Part shown: piece by piece, positions 9,288 through 64,000 of the stretch
How the letters are laid out: every line of letters starts with the position of its first letter
Position numbering within the stretch: the first letter of the stretch is position 1
From: Candidatus Latescibacterota bacterium
Lineage (GTDB): Bacteria > Latescibacterota > UBA2968 > UBA8231
Assembly: GCA_965215195.1 (NCBI GenBank)
Contig: CBDCDC010000002.1
Span: 2,848,001-2,912,000, forward strand
Direction of reading: 5' to 3'
DNA length: 64,000 nt
The notes under the pieces: model-generated
The model's database searches: none
What the model saw: only the letters and a program-made list of their open reading frames with translations
What the model was told of the DNA's origin: nothing
Program-made: the position numbers and the translations under genes

Positions 9288-9290
9288 AAA

Positions 9291-29159: not shown

Positions 29160-30413
29160 TCAGGATTGGATCCCATCGGAAGAACTATTCGGAGCCTGAT
29201 CTGTTTGTTTGCTAGGGCTTCGCCGGAAGCACCTGAGCACACTACATGCGACATGCCAAGCGAATACAGGAGGCACCGCATTGCCCACTTGTCGCTCGGT
29301 CTCCCTGAGACCTGACTGGAAGATAAAGCTATCGGGGAACGATTGTATCCGCGCAGCCTCCCTCATGGAAATGCGTCTCGGCAGCGAATAATGGAACTGA
29401 ATATTCCCGTGACACTCAGCGCGAATCGTGTGGGCCGGCCTGTAGGCGGTAAGCCTACGGTTGCCCTGCTCTGGGCTAGGGTTTGCCCGGCTCCATATGT
29501 GGTTCAATTTGCGATTCTCTTGGACGGTTTCCAGATCGCCAATTGCCTCCTCGGCGGTTATCCACTCAGAGGGACTTCGTTCAGGTTCTGGAGGCGTGAA
29601 AGGGTCCACCTCACTGGAGGTACCTACGATAATGACTCTCTCTCGCATCTGAGGTACACCATAGTCGGCCACCCGATACAACTTGTAGCCGACTGCGTAG
29701 CCTAGACTGCCGAAGTCAGAAAGTACTTGGGCTAGTGCTTCTCGATTGTCCCCTATGAGGAGGCCCTTGACGTTCTCTGCGACAAAGACTCTTGGCCTGA
29801 TTCGTTTCACGCCCTCCACCATTGCCCGGTAAAGACCCGTCCGGGGGCCGTTAATGCCAGCCCTCTTGCCGTTAATGGAAATATCTTGGCAGGGAAATCC
29901 ACCAATCAGCACATCTGCTTCATTCGGCAGTTTATCAATAAAATCCCATACATCGCCACACGCGATGTCGTGCCCCAAGTTGTGTGTGTAGGTCTTGCAG
30001 GCGGCTCTGTTGTTGTCGTTGGACCAGGTTATCGAAAATGGAAGCTGTGGGTAGCTTCGGCCCATGAACTCAAAGCCACCAGTGAAGCCAAGATCCATAC
30101 CTCCACAACCTGAGAACATAGATACTACAGTGAGAGATTTCTTCAGACTAAGCTGAGGCACTCGGTCAAGAAGATGAGAGCCACGTCTAGGAATTTGCTC
30201 TAGATCAGGTGCGGTTTTGTACTGTGCACCTGCATCACGACTGTTGTAATTGAAGAGAGAAAGTTGGCGTCTTTCTGCGCAATATTTCGCTGCTGACCTG
30301 ATGAACCAATCCTTGAGAGTACTGCCAGATAACGCGAGAGCCGAATATAGCTCTCGCTTCTGTTCTGGATCGATCTCGATCACTATTCTCCCAGAGGGTG
30401 TTGGATTTGCCAT
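29160..30413 (-). CDS. DNA (cytosine-5) methyltransferase with N-terminal extension
   Basis: FSGCGG, GGFPCQ, ENVKG, QMRER, REAARIQSFP, GNAVPP motifs. Confidence 0.93.
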   Translation of the reverse strand: MANPTPSGRIVIEIDPEQKRELYSALALSGSTLKDWFIRSAAKYCAERRQLSLFNYNSRDAGAQYKTAPDLEQIPRRGSHLLDRVPQLSLKKSLTVVSMFSGCGGMDLGFTGGFEFMGRSYPQLPFSITWSNDNNRAACKTYTHNLGHDIACGDVWDFIDKLPNEADVLIGGFPCQDISINGKRAGINGPRTGLYRAMVEGVKRIRPRVFVAENVKGLLIGDNREALAQVLSDFGSLGYAVGYKLYRVADYGVPQMRERVIIVGTSSEVDPFTPPEPERSPSEWITAEEAIGDLETVQENRKLNHIWSRANPSPEQGNRRLTAYRPAHTIRAECHGNIQFHYSLPRRISMREAARIQSFPDSFIFQSGLRETERQVGNAVPPVFAWHVACSVLRCFRRSPSKQTDQAPNSSSDGIQS

Positions 30414-39424: not shown

Positions 39425-41692
39425 ATGACCGACGAACAACACCCCCTTCACGCCTTGCCCCAAGGCCATCGGCTGCAAGAATACGAACTGGTGCGCGTGT
39501 TGGGCATGGGCGGCTTCGGCATGACCTATCTGGGCTTTGACCACAACTTGGACAAGGCCGTCGCCCTCAAGGAATACCTGCCGTCGGATATTGCCACCCG
39601 CACGGCCGATGGCAGCGTCGCTCCGCAAGCCAGCACCTTTCGCGGCGATTTCCAATGGGGCTTGGAGCGGTTTTTGGACGAAGCACGCACGTTGGCGCGG
39701 TTTGATCATCGCCACATCATTAAAGTGCATCGTTTCTTTGAGGCGCATGGTACGGCGTATATCGTAATGGAGTATGCCGAAGGCGAGACCTTATCGGCGC
39801 ATCTGGAGCGCAAGGGGCCGCTGACGGAAGCCGAACTCAAGACGATTCTGTATCCGCTTCTGGACGGTTTGGAAGTGGTGCATCAAGCGGCTTTTCTGCA
39901 TCGGGACATCAAGCCGGGCAACATTGTCCTGCGGGCTGAGGACGCTTCGCCGGTGTTGCTGGACTTTGGTGCGGCGCGTCAGGCGATAGGAGCCAAGAGT
40001 CGTTCGGTGACGTCTATCGTGACGCCGGGGTATGCGCCGATAGAGCAGTATTCGAGTCGGGGTCGTCAAGGGGCTTGGTCGGATATTTATGCGTTGGGGG
40101 GCGTGTGCTATCGGGCGTTGACTGGGGACGTGCCGGCGGACGCGACGGATCGGATGCGGCATGATCCGCTGGTTCCGGTGTCTGAGCGGTGTGCGGGTCG
40201 GGCGAGTGGTGCATTTTTGTCAGCGATTGATGCGGCATTGGCAGTAGATGAGGGGGATCGTCCGCAGAGTGTGGGGGCGTGGCGGGCGGCGTTGGAAGGG
40301 GCTAGTTCGGCCTCGGCCCCAGCGCGTGGCCAAGCAGAAGGGGAGAGTCGTAGGATACCGGAGCCAGTGGCTCGGGCGGGGCAAGCTGAGGAAGTGGTGG
40401 ATGCTGTGGCGGCAGCAGAGAAGGATGCGGGGGATGAGGCGACAATTGTGGAGCGGGTGGAGCCGGCCGCGCCGCCGTCGGAGCGGCAGCAGAAGCCCAG
40501 CTTCAAGCGGCTTGCCGTAGTCTTGGGCGTGGTTGCTGCTCTGTTGGTTGGGGGCAAACTGTATGTTGATCATGCCGAACAGGTAGCGTTGGAGAAGGAG
40601 CGTCGGGCGGAACAAGCTGCCGAAGCGGCCAGACTTGCGGCTGAGCAAGCCGAGAAGGAGCGTCGGGCGGAACAAGCTGCCGAAGCGGCCAGACTTGCGG
40701 CTGAGCAAGCCGAGAAGGAGCGTCGGGCGGAACAAGCTGCCGAAGCGGCCAGACTTGCGGCTGAGCAAGCCGAGAAGGAGCGTCGGGCGGAACAAGCTGC
40801 CGAAGCGGCCAGACTTGCGGCTGAGCAAGCCGAGAAGGAGCGTCGGGCGGAACAAGCTGCCGAAGCGGCCAGACTTGCGGCTGAGCAAGCCGAACAGCAG
40901 GCGGCGTTAGAGAAACAGCGTCGGGAGCAGGCGGCGTTGGAAGCAGAGCGCAAGGCGGGCCAGGTGGCTTCGCTTCCGGGGGGTGCGGAGATGGCGTTTG
41001 TTTGGATCGCGCCGGGAGTGTTTCAGATGGGTTCGCCTTCCTCGGAGGCGGGTCGTGGTTCAGATGAAGGGCCGGTGCATGAGGTGGAGATCAGTCGGGG
41101 GTTTTGGTTGGGTAAATATGAGGTGACGCAAGCGCAGTGGGCGGCCGTGATGGGGGCGCGGCCGTGGTCTGGGAAGGATTATGTTCAGTCGAATCCATCT
41201 CATCCGGCGGTGTATATTTCTTGGAATGATGTACATGAATTTATTGGTCGTTTGAATGACGCGGCGGGTGAGGAGTTGTATCGGTTGCCGAGTGAAGCGG
41301 AGTGGGAGTATGCGTGTCGAGCGGGTACGCAGACTCGTTGGTCATTTGGGGATGCCGAGCACCAACTGACGCATTATGCATGGTACAGGGATAATGCTTG
41401 GGGTATGGGTGAGAGGTATGCTCATGCGGTAGGGACGAAGCGTGCGAATGGTTGGGGATTGTATGATATGCACGGGAATGTTTGGGAGTGGGTGCAGGAC
41501 TGGTATGGAAAGAAGTATTATAATAGCTCACCTCGGGTTGACCCCCCGGGGCCTACATCCGGCTCTAATCGCGTCCTCCGGGGCGGCGGCTTCTTCAATA
41601 TCGCCCGGCGCGTGCGGTCGGCGCATCGCAGCAACGCCTCGCCCGACCCCCGCCACTACGGCATTGGCGTGCGCCTTTTAAGGATTCGTTAA
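39425..41692 (+). CDS. Hanks-type Ser/Thr kinase - TM - coiled-coil stalk - FGE-sulfatase (C-lectin fold) domain
   Basis: LG.GGFG, VALKEY, HRDIKPGN, DFG, TPGYAPIEQ; hydrophobic helix; MGS..., RLPSEAEWEYACRAG, YDMHGNVWEW, RV.RGG. Confidence 0.93.
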   Translation: MTDEQHPLHALPQGHRLQEYELVRVLGMGGFGMTYLGFDHNLDKAVALKEYLPSDIATRTADGSVAPQASTFRGDFQWGLERFLDEARTLARFDHRHIIKVHRFFEAHGTAYIVMEYAEGETLSAHLERKGPLTEAELKTILYPLLDGLEVVHQAAFLHRDIKPGNIVLRAEDASPVLLDFGAARQAIGAKSRSVTSIVTPGYAPIEQYSSRGRQGAWSDIYALGGVCYRALTGDVPADATDRMRHDPLVPVSERCAGRASGAFLSAIDAALAVDEGDRPQSVGAWRAALEGASSASAPARGQAEGESRRIPEPVARAGQAEEVVDAVAAAEKDAGDEATIVERVEPAAPPSERQQKPSFKRLAVVLGVVAALLVGGKLYVDHAEQVALEKERRAEQAAEAARLAAEQAEKERRAEQAAEAARLAAEQAEKERRAEQAAEAARLAAEQAEKERRAEQAAEAARLAAEQAEKERRAEQAAEAARLAAEQAEQQAALEKQRREQAALEAERKAGQVASLPGGAEMAFVWIAPGVFQMGSPSSEAGRGSDEGPVHEVEISRGFWLGKYEVTQAQWAAVMGARPWSGKDYVQSNPSHPAVYISWNDVHEFIGRLNDAAGEELYRLPSEAEWEYACRAGTQTRWSFGDAEHQLTHYAWYRDNAWGMGERYAHAVGTKRANGWGLYDMHGNVWEWVQDWYGKKYYNSSPRVDPPGPTSGSNRVLRGGGFFNIARRVRSAHRSNASPDPRHYGIGVRLLRIR
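40592..40893 (+). repeat. Perfect 60-bp coding tandem repeat x5 (EKERRAEQAAEAARLAAEQA)
   Basis: Identical consecutive 60-nt lines in the sequence. Confidence 0.97.
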
Positions 41693-41761
41693 CCCTTTAG
41701 TCCTTTTACCCTTTAACCCTTGGCGGGGGTCTTGGGGCGTGTGGGGTGTCTTTTGGGGTAT

Positions 41762-41879
41762 GCCTTTTGGGATTTCGCCCCGATAAAGGGGTGTGCGTAG
41801 CCGCCCTTCGGGGGCGGAATCCCAAAAGGCGGGGGAGGGGCCCCTGTGAGGCCCGCGTGCGGGCCTCACGCGATTTTTA
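41762..41879 (+). other. Hairpin complex downstream of the kinase-FGE gene (terminator and/or DGR-type cis element)
   Basis: ~22-bp imperfect IR 41762-41783/41808-41830; 11-bp IR GTGAGGCCCGC-GT-GCGGGCCTCAC 41846-41869 followed by GCGATTTTTAT. Confidence 0.65.
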
Positions 41880-42008
41880 TCTTCCCCCCTTCCTGAGAGA
41901 AACTGCCACCCGCACGGCCGACGGCAACGTCGCCCCGCAAGCCAGCACATGGGACGCTCCTAAACGGCTGAGGTATGGCCAACCATCAACTCTGAGGAGG
42001 ATATACTT

Positions 42009-42893
42009 ATGCAGAACAGAACCCTTCGGGATCCTAATTCTCGGTTTATCACACCGGCAGGCGGAGTTATAGCACTTCTCTGTTTCTTTATGCCTTGGGT
42101 TAAAATCTCTTGCATGGGTACCACCACACAAGTTTCAGGTTTTGATCTTGCTACCAAGGGCGGAGACCTGATTATAAACCCTTTTGTTGCTTTAATTGCT
42201 GCCGTGGCAACTATTGGGATTAGCGTTTACATGTTGATGCAACAAACACCTTGGAAATCCAAATTGCCAGTTCTTATTAGCAGTGGGATTGGGATCTGTT
42301 GCCTTTGGGTCAGTTTGTTCAAGGATGGTCGTCCTAGTTTTGGAGGACTTGAAGGCACCCTCCAATTTGGAGCGTTTGGAACGATTATCGGATTTATTCT
42401 TTCTATTATCGGTGTATGGGCCACCTCTAAACCCGACGATAGTTCAGGCATCCCCGGTGAAAACCAGTATAGACCAAACCCAAAGGCTGAGTCCCGCTTG
42501 AACGAAACTGAACAAACGGCTGAAGCAGTGCGCCAAACTAAAGCGAATGCTCCGCAACCCACGCCTTTTAGCTGTCTATTGGAAGGCCAAGACCCCACCG
42601 GCCGGTCATTCGCCTTGACCATATCGGCATTGGCATTGAGTGAGCGGGCCGGGGTGACGCTCGGCAGAAGCCCGGCCAACGCCGAATTTGTCATTGACCA
42701 CCAAGAAGTCTCCCGCGAACACGTCCGGCTTGCCTGTGTTGACGGCGAACTCTACGCAGAGGACTTGAACGCCCTGAATGGCACCAAGGTGAATGGCCGC
42801 TTGCTCAATCCCCACGAGCAGGTGCTGTTGCAAAACAATGATCGGCTTGAGGTAGGGCCGATTGTTTTTGCCGTGCGCTTCGTTCAGGTCTAA
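42009..42893 (+). CDS. Multi-TM protein with C-terminal FHA domain
   Basis: About four hydrophobic segments then LGRSP...VSREH...NGT.VNG; GAGGAGG RBS. Confidence 0.85.
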   Translation: MQNRTLRDPNSRFITPAGGVIALLCFFMPWVKISCMGTTTQVSGFDLATKGGDLIINPFVALIAAVATIGISVYMLMQQTPWKSKLPVLISSGIGICCLWVSLFKDGRPSFGGLEGTLQFGAFGTIIGFILSIIGVWATSKPDDSSGIPGENQYRPNPKAESRLNETEQTAEAVRQTKANAPQPTPFSCLLEGQDPTGRSFALTISALALSERAGVTLGRSPANAEFVIDHQEVSREHVRLACVDGELYAEDLNALNGTKVNGRLLNPHEQVLLQNNDRLEVGPIVFAVRFVQV

Positions 42894-42992
42894 ATACACG
42901 ACAGTAACCTAAGTTGTGGTGCAGCCATGATTTAGATTTATTATCAACCTTCTTAGCTGTTGACGGCCAGCCTGAACGTACACGGAGAGGTT

Positions 42993-44618
42993 ATGAACAA
43001 ACAATACCTATCTTTCATCGCGCATTTCGCCGTGGCTTGGTTCCTTTGCACAAGCCCCGTCTCGGCGCAAATAGATGTGGATGCTGTTTCCGAAAGCATC
43101 GTGCGGGTGCGCGCTTATGACGATCACAAAGTCGTGGTTGAAGGGAGCGGTTTCGTCGTCAATGAAGAGGGCTACGTGCTGACGAATGCCCATCTCACAG
43201 CCAAGGCAGAGGGATTGACTGTATTGTCCCTGAAGACCGGGGCCGAGGTCGTGGCGCAGCGGGTGTTTGCCAGCCGCGCCCTGAACTTGGCCCTGCTGCA
43301 CGTACCGGGCTTGAACTTGCCGCCCCTCAGCTTGTCCGAGCAAGGTGCCGCTGTAGGCCGCGTCGTGCAGACGCTGCGGTTTGGCACGGACGAGGATGTT
43401 CGGCTTTCTCACGGGACGATTGGCACCTACCAAGACGTCCGCGGCAAGAAAGCAAGCCGTCCGGTGGCACACTTGCTCCAACACAACGCCTTGATAACGG
43501 CCAAAGCCTTTGGCATGCCCTTGTTCAACGAATGCGGGGACGTCGTCGCCCTCAATCTGCCCAACCCGGGCAGCGGCTCGTGGCCGTTTCGTAAAGCGAA
43601 GCCAAGCGGGACCATTTTTGCCCTGCGCAGCGGCGACATAATAGCGGCGCTTGAAGAGCGAGAAATCGCGCATACCGTGGTTGAAGCAGAATGCCTGAGT
43701 GCGGTTGAGCGCGCTGAACGCGCTAGAAAAGCGGCGGCTGACAGCCTCAAGTTGGCGAAGGCGCAGGCCGACTCGGTAGGCAAAGCCGCAGAAAAGGCCA
43801 AGGCGCAGGCCGATTCGGCGAGCGAAGCCGCAAAAAAGGCCAAGGCGAAAGAAAAGGCCGCTCGGCGGGCGGCAGAACGGGCGCAAGCGCGAGCCGATTC
43901 CGCCAAGAAAGCGGTGGCCGACAGCCTCCAAGCGGCCAAGGCTCAAGCCGACAGCCTCAAGATGGCGCAGGCGCGGGCTGATTCGGCGAGTAAGGCCGTG
44001 GCCGACAGTCTCAAGGCCGCCAAGGCTCAAGCCGACAGCCTCCAAGCGGTGGAAGAGAAGGCCCAAGCCCAAGCCGACAGCCTCCAAGCGGCCAAAGAAA
44101 AGGCCGCGCAGCGATTGCAGTGGGGCGTTGCTGCGGGGGCGGGATTGGTGCTGCTCGCACTGCTCGGTTGGTGGCTTTCCTCGCGGCGCAAAAAGGAGCA
44201 ATTACAGAGTGCCGAGTCTCGAGTGAGCGAAGCCGAGCAAACGGCTCAAGCCGCGCGCCAAGCGGCGGCGAACGCACCGCAACCCGCGCCTTTCAGATGT
44301 CTATTGGAAGGCCAAGACCCCACCGGCCGCCCATTTGCCTTGACCCTATCGGCCTTGGCATTGAGCGAGCGGGCCGGTGTGACGCTCGGCCGAAGCCCGG
44401 CCAATGCCGAATTTATTATTGACCACGAAGAAGTCTCCCGCGAACACGTCCGACTCGCGTGTGCTGACGGCCAACTCTACGCAGAGGACTTGAACGCCCT
44501 GAATGGCACCAAGGTGAATGGCCGCCTGCTCAACCCCGGCGAGCAGGTGCTGTTGCAAAACAATGATCGGCTTGAGATTGGGCCGGTGATTTTTAGCGTA
44601 CGCTTGCTGCAGGAGTGA
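42993..44618 (+). CDS. Trypsin-like (probably inactive) domain - coiled-coil - TM - FHA
   Basis: Signal peptide; GSGF...LTNAH present but NLALL and AFGMPL replace DLA and GNSGGPL; TM; FHA. Confidence 0.85.
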   Translation: MNKQYLSFIAHFAVAWFLCTSPVSAQIDVDAVSESIVRVRAYDDHKVVVEGSGFVVNEEGYVLTNAHLTAKAEGLTVLSLKTGAEVVAQRVFASRALNLALLHVPGLNLPPLSLSEQGAAVGRVVQTLRFGTDEDVRLSHGTIGTYQDVRGKKASRPVAHLLQHNALITAKAFGMPLFNECGDVVALNLPNPGSGSWPFRKAKPSGTIFALRSGDIIAALEEREIAHTVVEAECLSAVERAERARKAAADSLKLAKAQADSVGKAAEKAKAQADSASEAAKKAKAKEKAARRAAERAQARADSAKKAVADSLQAAKAQADSLKMAQARADSASKAVADSLKAAKAQADSLQAVEEKAQAQADSLQAAKEKAAQRLQWGVAAGAGLVLLALLGWWLSSRRKKEQLQSAESRVSEAEQTAQAARQAAANAPQPAPFRCLLEGQDPTGRPFALTLSALALSERAGVTLGRSPANAEFIIDHEEVSREHVRLACADGQLYAEDLNALNGTKVNGRLLNPGEQVLLQNNDRLEIGPVIFSVRLLQE

Positions 44619-44621
44619 ACA

Positions 44622-45944
44622 TTGCACCGCTCCAGACGCTGGGGTCTCGTCTTGTTTCTTGGTGCGCTGCTGCCGGGCCGCGCCGTTGCTGCGCCAGACT
44701 TTGACGCGCTGGAGAAGAGCGTGGTGCGCATCGTAACCCAGACCAGTGCTGGCACTGGATTCGCGATCAACGACCAAGGCTATATTGCGACCAATGTCCA
44801 CGTCATCGCCAATGCCCGCTCAATCCAAGCCATCCCGACAAACTCCAACGCCCTGTACGAGGTGGAAGTAATCGCCACGTCCCCAGAACTCGACCTCGCA
44901 ATCGCCCATATCCCAGATATAACCCTGCCGCCGATCGCGCTGTCGCTCGCCCCCGCCACCAAAGGACAGAAGGTATGGTCCATCGGCTATCCCGGTGGGG
45001 CTGACCGCAACAGGCCGGCGCACGACCCGACCGTGCAAGACGGCGTCATTGGGCGGGTTTTTTTAGGCGCGTGGCATGCACAAGAGCTCAGAATTATTCA
45101 GCACAATGCGCCGACCAACCCAGGCAACAGCGGCGGCCCCTTACTAGATGACTGTAGCCGGGCCGTCGGCGTCAATACGCAGGCGTCGCTCGTGGTCATT
45201 ACCAGTCCATCGAGCGGGGTGACGCGGGTGCCCCATGCGGCGGGCATTTACTGGTCTTCGCACATAGAGGAGTTGGCCAACCTGTTGGACGGCCACGGCA
45301 TTGCCTTTCAAGCGGAGAGTGACGATTGTGTGGCGGCTGGCGGCACGGGAAGCTCTGGCGAGGCCGAGAAGGCGCGGCGCGAGGCGGAAAAGGCGCGGCG
45401 CGAAGCCGAAGAAGCGCGAGAGCAGGCCGAAGAAGCCAGCGATCAATTCCTCGTCTATCTGCTATTGTTGGGTGGTGTGGCCTTGGTCGCATTGGTCGTT
45501 GCCTTGAAGAAGCCGCGCCAGTTCGCCCAGCAGACTTTGGCGAAGCCGCGCCAGCTCGTCCAACAGATGAGTCAGCGCGTGACCAAAAAAGGGGTAGAGG
45601 CCGTTGCAAAAGGCCCAAAGTACGGCCTCGTGCTAGCTGGTTTTGACGGTCGCGGCCACCGCGTTCGCATTGAGTTGTCGCCGGCCCGCTTGGCCGGTCA
45701 ACGCTTGGGGCTTTCGCTCGGCCGGCATCCCGAGCTGGTGGATGAAGTCGTCGCCGATGAAAACGTATCCCGACGGCATCTGCGCATTGCCGCCCAAGGC
45801 AATCGCTTGTACGTCGAAGACTTGAACTCCAGCAATGGGACGTTTTTGAATGAACAGCGCCTGTCGCCCTTTGAGCCGGCGCGATTGGAATATGGTGCCA
45901 AAGTTGCGTTGGGCGATTTGGTGCTCGTGGCGTCCAAACTTTAG
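44622..45944 (+). CDS. Trypsin-like serine protease - coiled-coil - TM - FHA
   Basis: Signal peptide; TNVH, DLA, GNSGGPL intact triad; TM; LGRHP...VSRRH...DLNSSNGT. Confidence 0.9.
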   Translation: MHRSRRWGLVLFLGALLPGRAVAAPDFDALEKSVVRIVTQTSAGTGFAINDQGYIATNVHVIANARSIQAIPTNSNALYEVEVIATSPELDLAIAHIPDITLPPIALSLAPATKGQKVWSIGYPGGADRNRPAHDPTVQDGVIGRVFLGAWHAQELRIIQHNAPTNPGNSGGPLLDDCSRAVGVNTQASLVVITSPSSGVTRVPHAAGIYWSSHIEELANLLDGHGIAFQAESDDCVAAGGTGSSGEAEKARREAEKARREAEEAREQAEEASDQFLVYLLLLGGVALVALVVALKKPRQFAQQTLAKPRQLVQQMSQRVTKKGVEAVAKGPKYGLVLAGFDGRGHRVRIELSPARLAGQRLGLSLGRHPELVDEVVADENVSRRHLRIAAQGNRLYVEDLNSSNGTFLNEQRLSPFEPARLEYGAKVALGDLVLVASKL

Positions 45945-45956
45945 AGGGTATTGGGC

Positions 45957-46910
45957 ATGAAAAAACGCAGCCGCGAGCTCAGCATCTTTAGCATGTCCGC
46001 GCTCGATCTATTCGCATCGGCTCTCGGTGCCTTCATACTCATTACCGTAGTGCTGCTGCCCTTCTTTCCAAATCTGAACATGTCGGGACAAGCGCAGGCT
46101 GAGTTGGAACAGGCGCAGGCCGAGTTGGCGAAGTCGAAGGCCGAGTTGGCGCAAGCGGAGGCCGAGTTGGAGCGAGAGAAAGCCAAGCTAAGACAGGAAA
46201 AAGCCAAACTAGAGCGGGCCAAGGCCAAAGTTCCGAAAACAGAAAATCCACTTGCAAAACGAGTGGAGGCTTTGCAACAGGAGCTGAAGCAGGCAAAGGC
46301 CGAAGCGGCGAAAGCAAAAGGTCAGCTTGCAAAACGGGTGGAGGCTTTGCAACGGGAGATAGACGACACAACCGTTTTATTGGGAATCAAGACGAAGGCG
46401 AAGAAGTTTGTATTCGTCATAGATATGTCGGGCAGTATTTATCAACCGGCACAGCAAGATTATCGCCCGTTCATAACATTGTCCATACGAGACATGCTCG
46501 CTGCTTTTAAGTCGGAAATAGAGGTCTGTCTCATTGGTTTTCAAGGCTCAAATCGGCTGCACTATTGGCCTCAAAATAGAGGGTACTTTCAAGTGAAAAG
46601 GAATACGCGAGATCGCGTTGTCGGACAGGTAAAAGACTGGATGAGATTGGTGGATGGCGGCACACCCACGCGCACTGCTTTGCTGGCGGCGATTGCACTG
46701 CACCCCGAAGAAATCATCCTGTTGAGCGATGGGGCACCCTCAGAGGATTGGCGCATGGTCGTGCGGACTGTAACGGCTAAAAATAGGCGGAAAATACCCA
46801 TACACGCCGTAGCCGTTGGCAATTACGTGACAGACCGGAAATTTATTGATTTTCTGGTGCAGCTAACCGAACAAAATAACGGCTATGTCGTAGGAGCCAA
46901 ACCGGGTTGA
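45957..46910 (+). CDS. TM-anchored coiled-coil vWA domain protein
   Basis: N-terminal TM SALDLFASALGAFILITVVL; coiled coil; MIDAS DMSGS, GGTPT, LSDGAP; IHAVAVG. Confidence 0.85.
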   Translation: MKKRSRELSIFSMSALDLFASALGAFILITVVLLPFFPNLNMSGQAQAELEQAQAELAKSKAELAQAEAELEREKAKLRQEKAKLERAKAKVPKTENPLAKRVEALQQELKQAKAEAAKAKGQLAKRVEALQREIDDTTVLLGIKTKAKKFVFVIDMSGSIYQPAQQDYRPFITLSIRDMLAAFKSEIEVCLIGFQGSNRLHYWPQNRGYFQVKRNTRDRVVGQVKDWMRLVDGGTPTRTALLAAIALHPEEIILLSDGAPSEDWRMVVRTVTAKNRRKIPIHAVAVGNYVTDRKFIDFLVQLTEQNNGYVVGAKPG

Positions 46911-46911
46911 C

Positions 46912-47295
46912 ATGAACAAATCGACGTTTTCGGTGTATCGAATTGGGCGCAGCCCCGGGGTGGACATTCGGATTGACGATGATTCGGTCTCGCGCGTCCA
47001 CGCCGAGCTAATTGCGACCCAAAGCGGCTCTTACTACCTCACGGATTGCGCCAGCAGCGGGGGTACTTATGTGGCGCGAAATGGTGAGTGGAGACGCATT
47101 CGGCAGGAATTTATAAGCCCGACCGACGCGATTTTACTCGGGCATTACCAGACGACCGCACCCGCACTTATCGCGCTGGCCGCGCAAAAGGAGCGCCGTT
47201 CAGGAGGCGGCAAACCCACGCGGGAGGACAGCTTGCCCGTAGGTCCCGTGCGGCGCAATGTAGATACGGGTGAGATCATGGGCGAGGAGGATTGA
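46912..47295 (+). CDS. Stand-alone FHA domain protein
   Basis: IGRSP..DI.I.DDSVSRVHAEL...D.AS.GGT. Confidence 0.88.
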   Translation: MNKSTFSVYRIGRSPGVDIRIDDDSVSRVHAELIATQSGSYYLTDCASSGGTYVARNGEWRRIRQEFISPTDAILLGHYQTTAPALIALAAQKERRSGGGKPTREDSLPVGPVRRNVDTGEIMGEED

Positions 47296-47296
47296 C

Positions 47297-48082
47297 ATGG
47301 CAAACGGGCAAGGAATAGAGCTGGAGCAACGTCTAAAAGCAAGCGGCGTCAGCCTGTTAGGAGGCGTCGTATCCATAGCGATTATGAGCCTTATTTTTGG
47401 TCATCCCGAGTCGGCGGCCGGTGCTTTCCTGCTAGATCGCCACACCGAGAATTTCCCCTACCCGTTTACGATCCAAAACGTCATGTGGCTCATGTTTTGG
47501 CTTGGCTGCGGTGAACTCTGGGTGCGGTTTAACCAAGCCAAGCTCGAAACGGAGCAGGTGGCGAAACGCTATCTGCCGGAAGACGAGGAGGTTATGTTGC
47601 GGGCGCGGGATTTGGGTTCCTTTTATCAAAAGGTGCGGCCCAAGGCCGAGGAGCACCCCTTTTATTTACAGCGTCTGATCATGCGCTGTATTTTGCAATT
47701 TCAGGGGAGCCACTCGGTCAATCAGGCCAACTCCCTGTTGAATTCTTCCCTCGAACTATTCCAACACGAGCTCGAACTCAAATACGCGATGTTGCGCTAT
47801 CTCGTGTGGCTGATACCAACGTTGGGGTTTATCGGCACGGTGGTGGGCATTGCGTTTGCCTTGGATTACGCGGCCAACATTGAAGACCCACAGGACCCGA
47901 CCTTGCTGGCCGAAATCACCGGTCGGCTGGGCGTGGCGTTTTACACGACCCTGCTGGCGTTGGTTCAGTCGGCCCTGTTGGTGTTTGCGCTGCACATTGC
48001 ACAGAGCCGCGAAGAGATGGCCTTGAACCAATCTGGTCAATACTGTTTGGACAACTTAATCAACCGGCTTTACGAAAAGTAA
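47297..48082 (+). CDS. MotA/TolQ/ExbB proton channel family protein
   Basis: IPTLGFIGTVVGI and LGVAFYTTLLAL signature helices. Confidence 0.88.
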   Translation: MANGQGIELEQRLKASGVSLLGGVVSIAIMSLIFGHPESAAGAFLLDRHTENFPYPFTIQNVMWLMFWLGCGELWVRFNQAKLETEQVAKRYLPEDEEVMLRARDLGSFYQKVRPKAEEHPFYLQRLIMRCILQFQGSHSVNQANSLLNSSLELFQHELELKYAMLRYLVWLIPTLGFIGTVVGIAFALDYAANIEDPQDPTLLAEITGRLGVAFYTTLLALVQSALLVFALHIAQSREEMALNQSGQYCLDNLINRLYEK

Positions 48083-48115
48083 GTTGCTGGAACAACCCAA
48101 AAATAGGAGGGCACC

Positions 48116-48769
48116 ATGCCTGTTTATCGCGGACCCGATGGCAAAATCATTGAAGAGAAAACCGATAAGCGGAAGGAGGATACCAAACCAACGGACAGAG
48201 CTGACAGGCCGTTGCCGCCGGCACCACCGGATGGCGAGCAACCCGCCGGTGCCGGGCGTTTAGATGCGCCCACCCAGCGAATGGGCGAAAGCCGTGCGCC
48301 GGCCAATGTCGGCGCGGAGGAGCGGACGCGCTTGGTGGGAGGGCGGCCGCGGCGAGAAGACGAGGAGCGCCGGCAGGAGCGCGCCGCAGCGGATCGCGGC
48401 ATGGATGATCCGGTTGTGGGGTGGCTGGTGGTTGTGGAGGGGCCGGGCAAGGGGCGGGCCGTGCAATTGGGATATGGTTCCAATTCACTTGGACGCGGGG
48501 CCACCGACCGCATCAAGCTCGATTTTGGCGACGATCAGATTTCGCGCAATGGCCATGCCGTTGTCACGTACGATCCGCGCGGCCGGAGGTTTTACGTGCA
48601 GCACGGCGGCGGCAAGAATCTGACGTATCTCGGGGACCAGCCCGTGCTCACACCGGCTGAGTTGCCGGCGCTGAGTCACATTAGCATCGGCAATACGGTT
48701 CTCCGCTTCGTGCCCCTGTGCGGTGCTGAGTTTGATTGGCAGGATGCAGAAGGAAGCGAGGCGCGATGA
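48116..48769 (+). CDS. FHA domain protein with disordered N-terminal tail
   Basis: PVVGWLVVVEGP, LGRG...DDQISR.GHA, NLTYL; AGGAGG RBS. Confidence 0.85.
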   Translation: MPVYRGPDGKIIEEKTDKRKEDTKPTDRADRPLPPAPPDGEQPAGAGRLDAPTQRMGESRAPANVGAEERTRLVGGRPRREDEERRQERAAADRGMDDPVVGWLVVVEGPGKGRAVQLGYGSNSLGRGATDRIKLDFGDDQISRNGHAVVTYDPRGRRFYVQHGGGKNLTYLGDQPVLTPAELPALSHISIGNTVLRFVPLCGAEFDWQDAEGSEAR

Positions 48770-49803
48770 ACGAATTAGACGGGCGCTTTGCCGCACGGCA
48801 AATTCCCGGCCAACGGGACTATCAAGAGGATGACTACGGCCTGTTAGATGGGCGCGACCTCGGCTTAGGCGGCCGCGAGCACACCATGTTGTTGGTGGCC
48901 GATGGCATGGGCGGCCACGTGGGCGGCGCAACGGCCAGTGGTCTTTTGAGCAAGACCTTTGTCGAGGCGTATCCGCAGGCTTCGGGGCCCATCGTCGATC
49001 GGCTGCGGGCCTGTCTCCAAGAGGCTAATGAAGCCATGGCTGCGGCCATTGCCGAAAATCCCGCACTCGACAGCATGGGTTCGACCTTGGTTGCGGCTGT
49101 TGTTTCAAGCGAAGGGCTGAACTGGATCAGCGTGGGCGACTCCCCGCTGTGGTTGTTTCGCGAGGGTGAATTGAGCCGGTTGAATGCCGATCATTCGATG
49201 GCGCCGGTTCTTGCGGATCTGGTGGCCACCGGGCGCATGACCGCAGCGGAAGCCGCTCAGGATCCAAGTCGGCATTCGCTGCGCTCGGCGGTCATGGGCG
49301 ACGACATCCATTTGATTGACGTATCATCGCAGCCGGTGGCTGTGCAGCAGGGCGACCGGGTACTCTTGGCGAGCGACGGTTTGATGACCCTCAGCGAGCA
49401 AGCGATCGCGGCGATCCTTAGAGAAAGGCAAGACGCGCCCTTGGAGGATAGTGCCGCAGCCCTTATCCAAGCGGTGGAAGCGGCCGAACATCCCCATCAG
49501 GACAATACGACCGTCTTGTTATACGCGCCGGCTGAGGGCGCGGAATTGGCGGCGGCTGATGTTGGCGGGGGGGAAGCTGCTCAGGGTAAGCCGCGATTGA
49601 AGCGCTGGGCTGGACTGTTGGGGATGTTGCTATGCGTTACTGTCTTATTGGGGGTGTTTTATTGGCTTGGGCCGGGCGAAGATGCGGCTGTTGAACCCAG
49701 TGAAGGCCCTGATGTTCAAGTGCCAGTGGCGTCCGACGCCGAAGAGGGCGCACCCGCTTCTCAGGAGGATAGCACCCGTACGGGACTGAACGAGCATGAG
49801 TGA
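48766..49803 (+). CDS. PP2C/PPM Ser/Thr phosphatase with C-terminal TM
   Basis: R..QED, VADGMGGH.GG, MGSTL, VGDS, DHS, LASDGL, DNTT; TM near the C-terminus. Confidence 0.93.
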   Translation: MNELDGRFAARQIPGQRDYQEDDYGLLDGRDLGLGGREHTMLLVADGMGGHVGGATASGLLSKTFVEAYPQASGPIVDRLRACLQEANEAMAAAIAENPALDSMGSTLVAAVVSSEGLNWISVGDSPLWLFREGELSRLNADHSMAPVLADLVATGRMTAAEAAQDPSRHSLRSAVMGDDIHLIDVSSQPVAVQQGDRVLLASDGLMTLSEQAIAAILRERQDAPLEDSAAALIQAVEAAEHPHQDNTTVLLYAPAEGAELAAADVGGGEAAQGKPRLKRWAGLLGMLLCVTVLLGVFYWLGPGEDAAVEPSEGPDVQVPVASDAEEGAPASQEDSTRTGLNEHE

Positions 49804-51454
49804 GGAACAGCATCGCTTGGCGCTGCCGCAGGGGACGCGCATCCGGGACTTTGAATTTCACCGCGTCCTCGGCCACGGCGGGTTTGGCATCACCTATCTG
49901 GGATGGAACATGGCCTTGGATATTCCCGTGGCGATCAAGGAATATCTACCGGCCGACTTGGCTACCCGTGAGCAGGACTTGTCGGTCGTGCCGCAGACGG
50001 CGCAGGCGGCGTCGGACTTTCAGTGGGGCTTGGAGCGGTTTTTGGACGAAGCGCGCACGCTGGCGCGCTTTCAGCACCCCAACATCGTCCGCGTCCATCA
50101 CTTCTTTGAAGCGCATAGCACAGCCTATATCGCAATGGACTATGTGGAGGGGGAGGACTTGTCGGCGCATCTTGAGCGCAAGGGGACACTGAGCGAAGAC
50201 GCGCTAAAGGGTATTCTGGATCCGCTGTTGAGTGCCTTAGAAGTGGTGCATCAAGCGGCTTTTCTGCATCGGGACATCAAGCCGGGCAACATCGTCCTGC
50301 GCGATTCGGATGGCTCGCCGGTGTTGTTGGACTTTGGTGCGGCGCGGCAAGCGATTGGGGCGAAGAGTCGTTCGGTGACGTCGCTCGTGACGCCGGGGTA
50401 TGCGCCGCTTGAGCAGTATTCGAGTCGGGGTCGTCAGGGTGCATGGACGGATATTTATGCGTTAGGTGCGGTGTGCTATCGGGCGTTGACCGGGGACGTG
50501 CCGGCGGATGCGACGGATCGGATGCGGGAGGATCCGCTGATTCCGGTATCGCAGCGGTGTGCGGGTCAAGCCAGTCCAGCGTTTTTGTCGGCGATAGATG
50601 CAGCATTGGCAGTAAATGAGGGAGATCGTCCGCAGAGTGTTGGGGATTGGCGGGCGGCGATGGCGGTGGACGCGGCCCCGCAGCACGAGCGGATCCCTTC
50701 GTTGGCCAAGCGGTATGCGGCTCGGATAAGCCAAACGTTTCTTTCGGTGATTAATAAGACATTGATGCGAGGAAGGCAGGGCGCGAGCAGTGAGACCGCT
50801 GATGCGCCACTTTCTACTCAGTCAGCAGCCAAAGTTAAAGAGGCGAAGCGTTTGAACAGGTGGTTTAAGCTCCACTACATTTGCCTTGCTGCCATCATAC
50901 CGGTATTGACAGCACTATTTGTTGGTATCGCGGTGGTATTTATCTCCCCACAAGGCGAGCGTATCCTCAAAGATCTGATCCGTTTTTTAGAGTCGCAGCG
51001 GTTAGAGTCATACCCGAGTAGCGTATTCGGACTGTTTGGCATCATAATCGCGATTGTTACGGCCGTGTTCGGGTTGATTGCTTTTGTATCCGGGTTGCGT
51101 ATCCTGCATAAATTGTGGTCCCTCATCTCCGCTCACAAAGCAAAGACGACACCAAGCGAAGCCGTTGGATTTTTCTTTATACCGCTGTTCGGTTTCTACT
51201 GGAACTTCATTGCAATTTACGGTCTCGCCAAAGCCCTCAATACCGAAATTGGTCGAAAATCAGTCAGTGAGGCGGCCAGTTTTATCTATTGCTGCTCATT
51301 TTTGCTTGGCCCTCTATGGGTGATAATGGGATGGCGAGAGGATCAGATTTGGATGGTCCCTATTGGATATATTGTTATGGTTGTGCTCTGGTTCGTCGTT
51401 CTGAGGCAAATGCAGAGTGCTGGTATGTTCATTTTGCAAGCGGATAAGGTGTAG
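49796..51454 (+). CDS. Ser/Thr kinase with multi-TM C-terminal domain
   Basis: LGHGGFG, VAIKEY, HRDIKPGN, DFG, TPGYAPLEQ; several hydrophobic helices in an AT-richer tail. Confidence 0.92.
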   Translation: MSEEQHRLALPQGTRIRDFEFHRVLGHGGFGITYLGWNMALDIPVAIKEYLPADLATREQDLSVVPQTAQAASDFQWGLERFLDEARTLARFQHPNIVRVHHFFEAHSTAYIAMDYVEGEDLSAHLERKGTLSEDALKGILDPLLSALEVVHQAAFLHRDIKPGNIVLRDSDGSPVLLDFGAARQAIGAKSRSVTSLVTPGYAPLEQYSSRGRQGAWTDIYALGAVCYRALTGDVPADATDRMREDPLIPVSQRCAGQASPAFLSAIDAALAVNEGDRPQSVGDWRAAMAVDAAPQHERIPSLAKRYAARISQTFLSVINKTLMRGRQGASSETADAPLSTQSAAKVKEAKRLNRWFKLHYICLAAIIPVLTALFVGIAVVFISPQGERILKDLIRFLESQRLESYPSSVFGLFGIIIAIVTAVFGLIAFVSGLRILHKLWSLISAHKAKTTPSEAVGFFFIPLFGFYWNFIAIYGLAKALNTEIGRKSVSEAASFIYCCSFLLGPLWVIMGWREDQIWMVPIGYIVMVVLWFVVLRQMQSAGMFILQADKV

Positions 51455-51583
51455 TTACTAACGTTCTCACTTTTTCTAAGAGGCCGTCTGCAAACCCCTT
51501 GTGCGGTCCTCTGCGGCCCATAGTTGCGCCGCTACGGTGGCCGAAAGTGAAATACACTGTTTGTTGAAAGGATCGGAGATACG

Positions 51584-52396
51584 ATGAGCGAAGAGCAACA
51601 CCCCCTTCACGCCTTGCCCCAAGGCCATCGGCTGCAAGAATACGAACTGGTGCGCGTGTTGGGCTTTGGCGGCTTCGGCATGACGTATTTGGGTTTCGAT
51701 CACAACTTGGACAAGGCCGTCGCTATCAAAGAATACCTACCGTCCGACATCGCTACCCGCACGGCCGATGGCAGCGTCGCCCCGCAAGCCAGCACCTTTC
51801 GCGGCGATTTCCAATGGGGCTTAGAGCGGTTTTTGGACGAAGCGCGCACGTTGGCGCGGTTTGATCATCGCCACATCATTAAAGTGCATCGTTTCTTTGA
51901 AGCGCATGGTACGGCGTATATCGTGATGGAGTATGCCGAAGGCGAGACCTTATCGGCGCATCTGGAGCGCAAGGGGCCGCTGACGGAAGCCGAACTCAAG
52001 ACGATTCTGTATCCGATTTTGGACGGTTTGGAAGTGGTGCATCAAGCGGCTTTTCTGCATCGGGACATCAAGCCGGGCAACATCGTCCTGCGCGATGAGG
52101 ACGCTTCGCCGGTGTTGTTGGACTTTGGTGCGGCGCGGCAGGCGATTGGGGCGAAGAGTCGTTCAGTGACGTCGATCGTGACGCCGGGATATGCGCCGAT
52201 AGAGCAGTATTCGAGTCGGGGTCGTCAGGGTGCATGGACGGACATTTACGCGTTGGGAGGCGTGTGCTATCGGGCGTTGACCGGACAGGTGCCGGAGGAT
52301 GCGCAGCAGGCTACGGGGGCTGACGCGCCCATCGTGGCGCGTGTGGAGCCGGCCGGCCGTTTTCACGGGCGCAGGCTTTTAGGCGCGACCTACTGA
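51584..52396 (+). pseudogene. Truncated Ser/Thr kinase, near-copy of the 39425 kinase domain
   Basis: Near-identical to 39425.. up to VPEDA, then jumps to a linker-like segment and stops; lacks the last kinase subdomains, TM and sensor. Confidence 0.75.
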
Positions 52397-60479: not shown

Positions 60480-60680
60480 ACCCATTCAACGAACCCTTCA
60501 GCCCGCACGATCAGACCCAGCTCTGCACCGGAGTTTTCCTCTGCGAAGATGGGCCGTGCTGCCCAGCGGCGGCGACACGGGCTACGCCGGCATCTTGCCC
60601 TTGGACGACGACCACGCGCTCATCGCGTACTACTTGACCCACGAATCGCCCGACCGGGGTTCTTGCGTCTATTTGTCTTT
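60480..60680 (+). pseudogene. C-terminal remnant of a BNR/sialidase-like beta-propeller protein
   Basis: VLPSGGDTGYAGILPL...IAYYLTHE....VYL resembles recalled C-termini of this family; no N-terminus or start. Confidence 0.35.
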
Positions 60681-60834
60681 TCAGTACTCATCGAGGATTG
60701 ACCACGGAGATTTGCCCATGGCGGAACGTTTTAGAATAGCGGTCGTCGGCGTCGGCCGGATTGGCGCATTCCACGCCCGCCACGTCCAAGAGCTGGCCAG
60801 CGAGCGGGGCGATTGCGCGTTGACCGCGGTAGTA

Positions 60835-61719
60835 ACCAATGGTGCTAGTGAGTTGACCGTGGTCGAGGTAGTTCCTACGCTGAGGGTGTCCCCCCTTCCA
60901 GCGAAGGAGCGTCCCATGACCACGGCCGAGTTTATAATAGCCCTCTTCTATCGGATCGACAACCAGATGGGCGATGTGCCCAAACACCCCCAAGCCGCCT
61001 TATATCCCAGCGAAACGGTGACCCTGGCGGTTCTATATGCGCTCAAAGGGGACGGCAAACGGGCGTTTTATCGCTGGGTAGTGCGCGATTGGCGCGCCTT
61101 TTTCCCGCGCCTGCCCGAACGCACCCGCTTGTTCCGCCTGTTTGTCGCCCATGCGGACTGGACCGATCGCTTTCGAGCGGACCCCACCCCCTTAGGCGTG
61201 ATCGATAGCTATGGCATCGAGTTGATCCATCCAGTACGCGAAGGCCGCTCCGCTCACCCTATCGGCCAGAAAGGGTTGTCCAATCACCGCTGGATCGTCG
61301 GCGGCAAGCTGGGCTTGATCGTCAACCAGTGGGGCTTGATCGTCGATTGGGATTGTAACACGGCCAATGTCCACGATTCGGTCTTTCACCCGATGATTGG
61401 TCGCTACGAAGAGCAGATGATCCTCCTCAGCGACCAAGGCTTTCATGCCAAAGAAGGTGATCCGGCTAATCTGAAAGTGTGTCCCCGCAAAACCTGGGGC
61501 GACCGGATGGTCATCGAGACCGTCTTTTCGATGCTGACCCGCATTGGCCGGTTCAAGCGACAGACCCATCGAGCTTGGGCCTACTTTAGAGCGCATCTGA
61601 GCGCGGCCATGGCCGCCTTTAACCTGCTGGCACAGTGGCATGGATTGCAACCGGATGAAAATGGATTCGTCCCGTTGTCCATCGCGGAATTTAGCTTGTA
61701 GCCCACTAGCACCATTGGT
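60835..61719 (+). mobile_element. IS982-family insertion sequence (885 bp)
   Basis: Perfect 16-bp TIR ACCAATGGTGCTAGTG / CACTAGCACCATTGGT; 5-bp TSD TAGTA at 60830-60834 and 61720-61724; element certain, family call by resemblance. Confidence 0.88.
60916..61701 (+). CDS. DDE transposase
   Basis: LYPSETVT, LPERTRLFR, VIDS, ANVHD, SDQG, R..IETVFS; AAGGAG RBS. Confidence 0.9.
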   Translation: MTTAEFIIALFYRIDNQMGDVPKHPQAALYPSETVTLAVLYALKGDGKRAFYRWVVRDWRAFFPRLPERTRLFRLFVAHADWTDRFRADPTPLGVIDSYGIELIHPVREGRSAHPIGQKGLSNHRWIVGGKLGLIVNQWGLIVDWDCNTANVHDSVFHPMIGRYEEQMILLSDQGFHAKEGDPANLKVCPRKTWGDRMVIETVFSMLTRIGRFKRQTHRAWAYFRAHLSAAMAAFNLLAQWHGLQPDENGFVPLSIAEFSL

Positions 61720-62927
61720 TAGTAGATGGCTACGGCGACTTGGCCGCCGAGGTCGCGGCCCAGCTACAGACTGGCCAAGAAACGGCGATTGGCGTTTTCA
61801 AAGACGTGGAGGAACTGGTCGCGGCTAAGGCAGCCGACGGCGCGTTCATTGCCTCGCGCACTGAAAACCACTACCGCGATGCCCAAATTTTGATCGACGC
61901 GGGCTGGCGCGTCTTGATGGAAAAGCCGCTGACGCATTCCTTGGCCACCGCGCGGGAGTTCGCCGCCTATCTGGACGCCGACGCCTTTGGCCGCACGGCC
62001 CTGATGCAGGCTTTTATGCGCCGCTTCGACGCCCCGCTGTTGTGGGCCAAAGCCCTGTTGGATCGAGGTGCTATTGGTGCGCCGTTCAAGATCGCTTCAA
62101 TCCTCGAAGATCCCGTGCCGCCGCCCCACGGGTACAATAGCTCCGGCCTGCTTTCGGATATGGCGGTCCACAACATCGACGAGATTCTCTGGCTCGGTGG
62201 GCAACAGCCCGAGCGGCTAGCTGGCTTTGGCAGCCTGCTTTACAACCAGCAGCACACGGACGTCAAAGAGGATTTCGACGACGCGCTCTTGCAGATGTAC
62301 TTTCCCGAAAACCTGATTGGCCAAGTGACGGTGAGCCGCAACCACGTAGCCGGGTATCGCAACGAGACGTGGGTTTACGCCACGGAGGGGGTGGTGCATG
62401 TGGGGGCCTTTGGTGCGGATCCGCTTAGAGTGGAAGCGGAAGCATTTGGGCGGCGGGGTTTAATTGAGCGGCGAGAATTCGCCCTGCGCGATTACGGCGC
62501 AGAAGTGCCGTTTTTTATCGAGCGCTTCGGGCCGGCGTACAAGGCCGAGGTAGCTCACTACATCGACCAGTGCCGCGCTGGCGCGCCGTTTGCCGTTGAT
62601 CACCGCGATGGGCTGAGGGCGCTGGAGATCGCGATGGTGGGAAGCGGGGCGTTGCAGGGGCGCGAAGGGGGCGTAGCGGTTGATTTTGCCGAGCGCGATT
62701 GAGACAGCAGAGAGCTAATTTTTGGGAAGTGCGGATATGGCACCAGTACGCGCATGGTCCTCGAGCCGCCGCGCCGCACGCCCAAAGGGGCGGAACGGTT
62801 CCTGCGGGTCTTGCATTATACCCTTTGCAATGGTTTTATTCGCAGTGAGGAAGTGCCTCGCGCCGAAGAGAAAGATAGCGTACAGTAGCTGCGGCGGATG
62901 AACGAGACCTGACGATAGGAGGTTGTT

Positions 62928-63347: not shown

Positions 63348-63701
63348 AGGAACCGAGCCGTGCGAGTGCCGTTGTTGGTCAAGGACCAGGCGACGCACGG
63401 CGATGTAGCTATCTGCGCCACCTTCTTTTTAAGCTGTCGTAAACCATATTGGTTTTACGACAGCTTTTTATTGTTAGTCCAGCGTCAGTTTTATCGTCTT
63501 CGCCGCGTCTATGCATATAATAGAGCAGGTGCGCGGACGTCTTGCTAAAGCATGCACCATATCGCTCCGCCGAAATCGAAGATGTAGTGCAGGAGGCCGC
63601 CAGCTAAGCCTTTCACCATCGCAATCGGCTCCGCGACCCAAGTGGCCGTTGACCAATTGTCAGAGAAAACCTTAACTACACGACAGTAGGGCCTTACCCT
63701 C

Positions 63702-63728: not shown

Positions 63729-64000
63729 CGGACTCATCGGAAACAGCAAAAAAGGCGTACTCAAAGTCAAGGTCCTAGTACCGGCTCCGATCGCGTCATA
63801 CGGGGAGGAAACTTCGGTATTTTCCTTCGACACGTGCGGTCAGCGTATCGCACCGGCTACTCGCCCAGCAATCGCTCCGTCGCCGTAGGTGTACGCATCT
63901 TGATGACTCGTTAGTTTTTCCTCGGCTCTTCCCAAGCGGTTCGACCTCGGCGACGGAATTCTCTATTAAAAGCTCCGATGAGCGCATAGGAGGAAGACCA

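Follow-up and report, generated by a model that had tools for sequence, protein, structure and literature searches.

A receptor kinase as a probable target of a diversity-generating retroelement

Proteins that join a protein kinase to a C-lectin domain have already been described among the targets of diversity-generating retroelements (DGRs), including targets that are remote from the retroelement (PMC7517822; PMC10907252). Here, we describe a candidate for this group in a stretch of 64,000 nucleotides from a Candidatus Latescibacterota bacterium (assembly GCA_965215195.1, contig CBDCDC010000002.1, positions 2,848,001 to 2,912,000), which is called the window throughout and whose first letter is position 1. 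The gene in question (39425..41692, forward strand) was identified from its open reading frame (ORF), translation and Pfam matches, and encodes a receptor Ser/Thr kinase of 755 amino acids. Judging from its sequence, the segment formed by the last 48 codons (41546-41689) is probably a DGR variable region by origin. The odds that this genome also holds a working template repeat (TR) and reverse transcriptase (RT) are about even.

Among the closest counterparts are the cyanobacterial kinase and C-lectin variable proteins, which are described as having an N-terminal Hanks-type kinase and a C-terminal C-lectin/FGE domain with a variable region, as the window kinase does (PMC7517822). According to the same source, cyanobacterial targets may lie more than 5 kb from the RT, in which case they are termed 'remote variable proteins'. 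Transposases are found near the cyanobacterial loci as well as near the window kinase, and the role proposed for both is the tuning of ligand recognition in signalling (PMC7517822). However, the cyanobacterial proteins are reported there to be mostly cytosolic by prediction, whereas the window kinase has a transmembrane helix and a repeat stalk, with the variable domain predicted to be outside. The window kinase also differs in adjoining a cluster of FHA, trypsin, VWA, MotA-like and PP2C genes, in having the closest of its retrieved DNA-level relatives in non-cyanobacterial metagenome-assembled genomes (MAGs), and in being known here without a TR or RT.

A second parallel is encountered in Thiohalocapsa sp. 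PB-PSB1, for which many C-lectin targets are described, one of them with a protein kinase domain (PMC10907252). Some of its loci are presented as incomplete or as candidate remote targets diversified in trans, and transposons have reshaped the loci. That study interprets the targets as presumed sensors of antigens in conflict systems that have trypsin-like partners, and FGE-type domains have elsewhere been linked to DGRs in conflict systems (PMC7159879). The domain partners differ, being STAND and NACHT in PB-PSB1, and FHA, PP2C and MotA-like at the window kinase. Moreover, TRs, RTs and population-level diversification are demonstrated in PB-PSB1 (PMC10907252), while the window kinase is known from a comparative footprint only. 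Among the matches listed in a literature search, there was no DGR paper for sponge, Gemmatimonadota or Latescibacterota. Surveys that start from RT neighbourhoods are described as missing remote targets by design (PMC8144416).

Comparison with related loci

Relatives at the DNA level comprise eight loci. Their MAGs carry the labels Latescibacterota, Gemmatimonadota, Gemmataceae or Verrucomicrobiae, and one is unclassified. The closest that were retrieved come from MAGs labelled Gemmatimonadota and Latescibacterota, and two of them, L002 (Gemmatimonadota label) and L004 (Latescibacterota label), were compared with the window kinase codon by codon. In the upstream part of the FGE domain, codon positions 1, 2 and 3 are identical to L004 at 160, 159 and 132 of 187 codons, and to L002 at 144, 141 and 123 of 179 codons. 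In the variable region the pattern is reversed: the corresponding counts are 34, 32 and 42 of 48 codons for L004, and 32, 37 and 42 of 48 for L002 (Fisher p for position 3, 0.010-0.017). The reversal is most pronounced at 16 variable codons, where positions 1, 2 and 3 match L004 in 2, 4 and 15 cases, and L002 in 4, 9 and 14 cases. All 16 codons have the form NNY (Y being C or T) in the window, L002 and L004 alike. Between these genomes, variation thus falls on codon positions 1 and 2, while the third base appears to be templated.

The codons between the variable positions behave differently. Over 25 scaffold codons, the window is identical to L004 at 72 of 75 nucleotides and to L002 at 71 of 75 (95-96%), while the upstream part of the FGE domain is identical at 451 of 561 and 408 of 537 nucleotides, respectively (76-80%; p 3e-4 for L004 and 7e-5 for L002). 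Since the scaffold is more conserved than the upstream part, the divergence of the gene bodies seems to be older than the last renewal of the segment from a conserved template. A conserved, AAY-rich template that is copied with adenine-specific errors would account for scrambled first and second bases, for a kept third base and for a scaffold that is better conserved than the gene body. Selection at the protein level does not produce this combination.

L002 and L004 also share a gene order, namely Cu-ATPase, Rieske protein, FGE, CusA/CusB/OEP and ferrochelatase. Either the phylum labels of the two MAGs are inconsistent or the block has been transferred.

At the protein level, a search with the whole kinase returned a large kinase-FGE family, with 71% identity for the best match. 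The C-terminal tails of the family fall into groups: some have a constant scaffold with scrambled positions, some are conserved throughout, and some are nearly fixed. Selection by the scaffold pattern retained 35 of the 239 stored proteins, which represent 31 distinct variable regions; 8 near-identical 'fixed' sequences were dropped, leaving 23. Among these 23, there are 16 columns with an entropy above 2 bits. The residues K, E, Q, M and W occupy only 13 of the 368 cells in these columns, compared with 931 of 4320 cells in the 180 residues upstream (binomial p 3e-23), and so the 16 columns hold almost only residues that can be reached from AAY codons. The mean pairwise identity among the 23 variable regions is 12% at hypervariable columns and 85% at scaffold columns, the latter figure being inflated because the selection pattern itself fixed part of the scaffold columns.

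Codon usage and base composition

In the window kinase, all 16 codons at the family-hypervariable columns end in C or T. At the 41% third-position C/T of the upstream FGE body, the chance of this is 7e-7. The sequence-only reading that had drawn attention to the segment listed a set of NNC and NNT codons outside the scaffold, and these codons are present. It also noted that composition changes sharply at the start of the segment, which both GC skew and codon usage confirm. The GC skew runs from +0.67 to +0.41 across 41400-41549 and falls to -0.16 across 41550-41649, and third-position C rises from 6% in 40970-41544 (where G is 50% and T 35%) to 54% in 41546-41689. The switch is sharp and can be placed at 41540-41546.

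The variable region is not the unusual side of this switch. Third-position C is 4-18% over 39725-41524 of the kinase gene and 58% in its last block; elsewhere in the window it is 22-56%, with housekeeping genes at 40-56%. It is, therefore, the gene body that stands out. Its coding strand is depleted in C and enriched in G and T, and the depletion ends abruptly where the variable region begins. The FGE genes of three related loci (L001, L002 and L004) share the depletion, with 7-11% third-position C, but that of L008 (19%) and an FGE target of Prosthecochloris (29%) do not. The idea that the depletion is tied to the variable region was rejected, since kinase paralogs without an FGE domain (50396-50700 and 51884-52393) share it.

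These observations bear on a simpler account, in which no retroelement was ever involved and the segment is an ordinary ligand-binding loop of the FGE family, under diversifying selection, with NNY codons arising from codon bias. FGE-family paralogs do commonly differ in the C-terminal region, and the window yielded no TR or RT. Nevertheless, codon bias in the gene body runs in the opposite direction. Diversifying selection would also leave unexplained the third bases that stay fixed beside scrambled first and second bases, the near-absence of K, E, Q, M and W, and the synonymous sites of the scaffold, which are better conserved than those of the rest of the domain. We consider this account very improbable.

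Layout and fold of the receptor kinase

The kinase protein has the layout of a membrane receptor kinase, and this is supported by its kinase motifs, a single transmembrane helix and an FGE domain that follows it in the sequence. Pfam places a Pkinase domain at residues 20-242 (PF00069, E 2e-37; 39482..40150, forward strand), predicted to be cytoplasmic, and an FGE-sulfatase domain at residues 524-753 (E 4e-49). The translation contains the catalytic motifs HRDIKPGN, DFG and VALK, which identify the enzyme as a Hanks-type Ser/Thr kinase. The only predicted transmembrane helix is a hydrophobic stretch at residues 363-377 (40511..40555), preceded by K and R residues. Between the helix and the FGE domain lie five perfect tandem repeats of 60 nucleotides, or 20 amino acids (40592..40893; 100% self-matches at 60-nt offsets), which form a charged helical stalk. 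The perfect identity of the repeats suggests that the stalk has expanded recently and varies in length. The constant part of the FGE/C-lectin domain, delimited by Pfam, codon composition and a structural model, occupies 40994..41545, and is followed directly by the variable region (41546..41689), with its 16 hypervariable NNY codons on a scaffold conserved at the nucleotide level, and the stop codon (41690-41692). The translation ends in the peptide that had been quoted as the end of the domain, followed by IR and the stop. In the predicted topology, the kinase lies inside the cell and the chain crosses the membrane once, so that the FGE domain is held outside on a helical stalk.

Receptor kinases of the PknB/PASTA type have a cytoplasmic Hanks kinase, one transmembrane helix, an extracytoplasmic ligand-binding domain, a PP2C partner and FHA-domain substrates. 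The window kinase has the same layout and presumably the same logic, with an FGE/C-lectin domain bearing a hypervariable tip as the sensor in place of PASTA repeats. With the NCBIfam PknB_PASTA model it scores 142 bits, below the cut-off of 450, and does not belong to that family.

Catalytic FGEs carry a pair of catalytic cysteines in the C-terminal segment. The FGE domain of the window kinase has a single cysteine (residue 631) and none in its C-terminal segment, and is thus predicted to have the fold but not to be an enzyme. A relative, L007, shows a two-cysteine motif after RGG.

Among solved structures, the best sequence match of the domain is the DGR variable protein TvpA (Treponema denticola variable protein 1, 2Y3C; E 6e-30), in which the aligned C-terminal segment corresponds to the variable region of the kinase. 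TvpA is a lipoprotein without a kinase and is only 29% identical to the FGE domain in the structural alignment. An AlphaFold2 model of the domain (pLDDT 87.1, pTM 0.88) also has its highest TM-score to TvpA (0.84), with PvdO at 0.82. The fold alone does not show DGR targeting, since PvdO and true FGEs score almost as well as TvpA. Pfam (a match to residue 753 of 755), the TvpA alignment and the model agree in placing the variable region at the C-terminal end of a C-lectin/FGE-type fold. Together with the comparative signature of a variable region, the fold and the TvpA match lend support to the earlier proposal that the C-terminal segment is a DGR target.

Search for a template repeat and reverse transcriptase

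We scanned the window on both strands for a TR with an ungapped, adenine-tolerant comparison, using a 151-nt segment and two 75-nt parts of it as queries, with the AAC-rich TR of the Prosthecochloris aestuarii plasmid pPAES01 as positive control for the TR scans. Apart from the segment itself, the only match was an orphan fragment, here called S2, which the scan aligned at 63767 with 96 matches, 19 adenine-type mismatches and 36 mismatches of other kinds; nothing else scored above background. By a published criterion, a TR is recognised as a near-repeat with more than 80% of its mismatches to the variable region on adenines (PMC7517822), and nothing in the 64 kb reaches this proportion. One AAY-rich stretch near 42290 on the minus strand was rejected as a TR, since the opposite strand encodes a membrane segment of an FHA protein there.

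The pPAES01 DGR is a useful reference. This plasmid (NC_011061.1) is the only plasmid record that matched the variable-region DNA (66.5% over 183 nt, E 6e-4), and the matching part coincides with the variable region in an FGE target gene, which adjoins annotated avd and RT genes. The pPAES01 target and the variable region of the kinase have scaffold motifs in common. The pPAES01 DGR is complete and acts in cis, with an FGE target, HRDC, avd, RT, an AAC-rich TR and a second FGE target, whereas the accessory parts are absent from the window. The variable region had no phage match.

S2 (63756..63914, forward strand) has the length of a variable region and lies in a non-coding context. Its similarity to the C-terminal end of the FGE domain is 48% over 52 amino acids by tblastn (E 3e-9); it begins where the variable region of the kinase begins and ends in a stop codon. 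There are no FGE remains upstream of it, and it has no plasmid match. A ribosome-binding site (GGAGGA, 63989-63994) is found 75 nt after the S2 stop, in the last 12 bases of the window (63989-64000), so that a gene should begin just past base 64000. That gene may open a DGR cassette or have nothing to do with one. The sequence-only reading had stated that no RT or TR is present in the window, and this holds for the RT and for a cognate TR, but it missed S2, the second FGE C-terminal fragment.

Could S2 itself be the template repeat of a DGR whose RT lies just past the window and which diversifies the kinase? Its non-coding context, length and starting point would suit this, as would the ribosome-binding site, and most of its mismatches to the kinase segment within the first 45 nt are on S2 adenines. 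Over 147 nt, however, there are 35 non-adenine mismatches against 17 of the adenine type. The variable codons of S2 are already diversified, with 14 of 16 being NNY, and by our own count adenine occupies 11 of the 32 first and second positions of the 16 variable codons, much as in the kinase variable region (12 of 32) and unlike the AAC-rich control TR. The scaffold differs at synonymous sites too, with 61 of 75 nucleotides and 16 of 25 third positions matching the variable region of the kinase. S2 was, therefore, rejected as the cognate TR, a role we regard as highly implausible for it. Instead, its sequence is read as that of an orphan, an older or foreign copy of a variable region.

A less direct connection is also conceivable. 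A DGR cassette may begin just past base 64000, with S2 and the ribosome-binding site as its visible signs and its own target reduced to a stump; this cassette, or a sister element, would then rewrite the tip of the kinase in trans, from 22 kb away. We offer this as a speculative and rather unlikely scenario.

Several results weaken the case for a DGR. Within the window there is neither a cognate TR nor an AAY-rich, TR-like stretch, although the scan detects the TR of the pPAES01 control. Of the 56 non-overlapping window ORFs with 90 amino acids or more, 51 were scanned together with five alternative ORFs, and none gave an RT or Avd. The variable region is thus flanked by 41.5 kb upstream and 22.3 kb downstream without an RT or cognate TR. 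The related loci give the same picture: none of the eight has a TR within 10 kb of its variable region, and Pfam found no RT in any of the 63 ORFs of at least 110 amino acids from five of them (L001-L004 and L008). Proteins of 31-102 amino acids included no Asn-rich translation of a TR, the six matches being short C-terminal fragments of FGE proteins with diversified ends. In addition to the inflated scaffold identity mentioned above, a subgroup of homologs (8 distinct sequences) has an almost fixed segment, which indicates that fossil variable regions exist in the family.

The window kinase may itself be such a fossil, written by a DGR in the past but now evolving as ordinary coding DNA after the loss of its working TR and RT. 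This would agree with the missing RT, Avd and TR in the window, with the negative results at the related loci, with the near-fixed subgroup, and with S2, which looks like a decayed or foreign copy. On the other hand, a segment abandoned for a long time should have drifted at synonymous sites like the flanking domain, yet the scaffold remains 95-96% identical to two MAGs whose gene bodies are only 76-80% identical, and every one of the 16 variable codons still ends in C or T. A fossil is, accordingly, a serious alternative to a variable region that is still being rewritten, though we judge it to be a minority possibility.

Sequences downstream of the stop codon

The DNA past the stop codon had been interpreted as the initiation of mutagenic homing (IMH) and hairpin elements of a DGR. 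The CCCTTT-type repeats (41693-41721) and GC-rich hairpins on which this was based are present. A conserved segment (41663..41721, forward strand) runs from the last part of the variable region through the stop codon to the repeats. It is a candidate end-of-homology (IMH-like) element and is nearly identical in the window, L002, L003 and L004, with 85% identity over 34 nt to L004. The repeats themselves are partly conserved in three related loci.

The predicted folding energy of the region 41690-41885 is -105.4 kcal/mol, with a z of -4.3 relative to 200 shuffles. In this 3' untranslated DNA there is a long imperfect hairpin whose stem has about 20 bp (41762..41830), identified as a self-complementary match that folds, and a hairpin resembling an intrinsic terminator, with 11 pairs (41845-41870) and then a run of T (41845..41878). 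The matching region of L002 has an equal fold in three parts (a CCCTT/GGGG hairpin, the stem of about 20 bp and the terminator; z -5.5). In phage DGRs, the IMH is described as accompanied by a GC-rich hairpin with a stem of 7-10 bp and a 4-nt loop, located 4-34 bp downstream (PMC3240598). No GC stem of 7-10 bp with a 4-nt loop is predicted within 4-34 bp of the kinase stop, and the reading of this DNA as IMH plus hairpin is at most tentative. The strong hairpins of the window lie 70-180 nt downstream of the stop. In L002, a hairpin of 8 bp begins 11 nt after the stop, and the matching stem in the window has two U-U mismatches.

The structured 3' element as a whole is common to the window (41693-41880), L002 (10184-10385) and L003 (3864-4065), the latter two from MAGs labelled Gemmatimonadota, with 77% identity over 140 nt between the window and these loci. 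Rfam gave no family over the whole window, and none for this element. Only 3 of 63 pairs are compensatory and only two lineages are distinct, so the structure is not established by covariation.

Genomic neighbourhood

After the terminator of the kinase gene there is a co-directional cluster (42009..52396, forward strand, assigned with Pfam) that encodes a transmembrane FHA protein, two trypsin-FHA proteins, a coiled-coil VWA protein, an FHA protein, a MotA/ExbB-like protein, another FHA protein, a PP2C phosphatase and two Ser/Thr kinases. PADLOC found no defence system in the cluster, only generic kinase-domain matches and one weak ZorA-like match of the MotA-type protein (E 2e-5), and no NCBIfam model reached its cut-off. 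It had been proposed that the receptor kinase feeds the FHA/protease/MotA system. The basis for this putative link is adjacency and a paralog of the kinase domain at the end of the cluster; the receptor kinase gene has a terminator of its own. The paralog (51523-52303) is 93.6% identical to the receptor kinase domain over 781 nt, while the second kinase (49877-50663) is 80% identical.

The first of these similarities suggests that the promoter and catalytic domain of the kinase were duplicated not long ago, giving rise to the kinase-only gene of 270 amino acids that closes the FHA cluster. Just past the terminator of the receptor kinase there is also a 50-nt relic of a kinase gene (41899..41948, forward strand), found by repeat search and matching kinase codons 55-71 with 93% identity over 45 nt. 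The duplication and the relic both point to rearrangement around the FGE module.

Other features of the window include signs of mobile elements and restriction-modification. A GFO/IDH/MocA oxidoreductase gene (60556-62702) seems to have been interrupted by an IS982-like transposase ORF (below the NCBIfam cut-off). The Rossmann N-terminus of the oxidoreductase leads in frame into the beginning of the transposase ORF, and its C-terminal part is encoded at 61740-62702. A GC-rich, REP-like palindrome of about 30 nt occurs at 63700-63730 and 5508-5531 of the window, at 17739-17768 of L004 and at 1495-1531 of L001 (both labelled Latescibacterota), a distribution that may reflect the lineage of the window organism. 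A set resembling a restriction-modification system (5812-11021) consists of a ResIII-type helicase, an 8xMP membrane protein and an N6/N4 DNA methylase. For the methylase, the type III methyltransferase model is the best match in PADLOC. A separate C-5 cytosine methylase is encoded at 29163-30413.

A putative hypervariable receptor kinase

The preferred reading, in which the last 48 codons originated as a DGR variable region, suggests the following sequence of events. The segment would be overwritten by cDNA from an AAY-rich template repeat with adenine-specific errors, so that the first two bases of about 16 codons are randomised, while the templated third bases and the scaffold are kept. The retroelement, if it still exists, would have to act from a distance, since none is found in the tens of kilobases on either side of the variable region. 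The randomised residues would be displayed in the C-terminal part of a non-catalytic FGE/C-lectin fold, outside the membrane on the repeat stalk. Binding of a ligand at this variable tip may then switch the cytoplasmic Hanks-type kinase, which in turn may phosphorylate threonines that are read by phospho-threonine-binding FHA proteins, with the PP2C phosphatase resetting the state. The neighbouring FHA, trypsin-FHA, VWA, MotA-like and PP2C cluster is the most likely target of this signalling.

DGR kinase-lectin proteins have been proposed as bacterial sensors of ligands or 'antigens', but few have a readable signalling context. The window kinase adjoins a complete phospho-signalling set of FHA proteins, a PP2C phosphatase and further kinases, together with proteases and a MotA-like channel. 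If its TR and RT are found, the coupling of a hypervariable sensor to its output could be tested directly at this locus. The comparison also indicates that the footprint of a DGR can be recognised without the retroelement, by a templated third base, scrambled first and second bases, and a scaffold that has changed less than the gene body. Such an approach should be useful for remote targets.

If the speculative cassette past base 64000 does exist and it or a sister element rewrites the kinase in trans, two further consequences would follow. The bacterium would have a programmable surface 'antigen receptor', wired via FHA proteins to proteases and a MotA/ExbB-like channel. In addition, one conserved retroelement template would circulate among unrelated bacteria and serve many differently built receptors, in keeping with a scaffold that is so much closer than the gene bodies among MAGs with different phylum labels.

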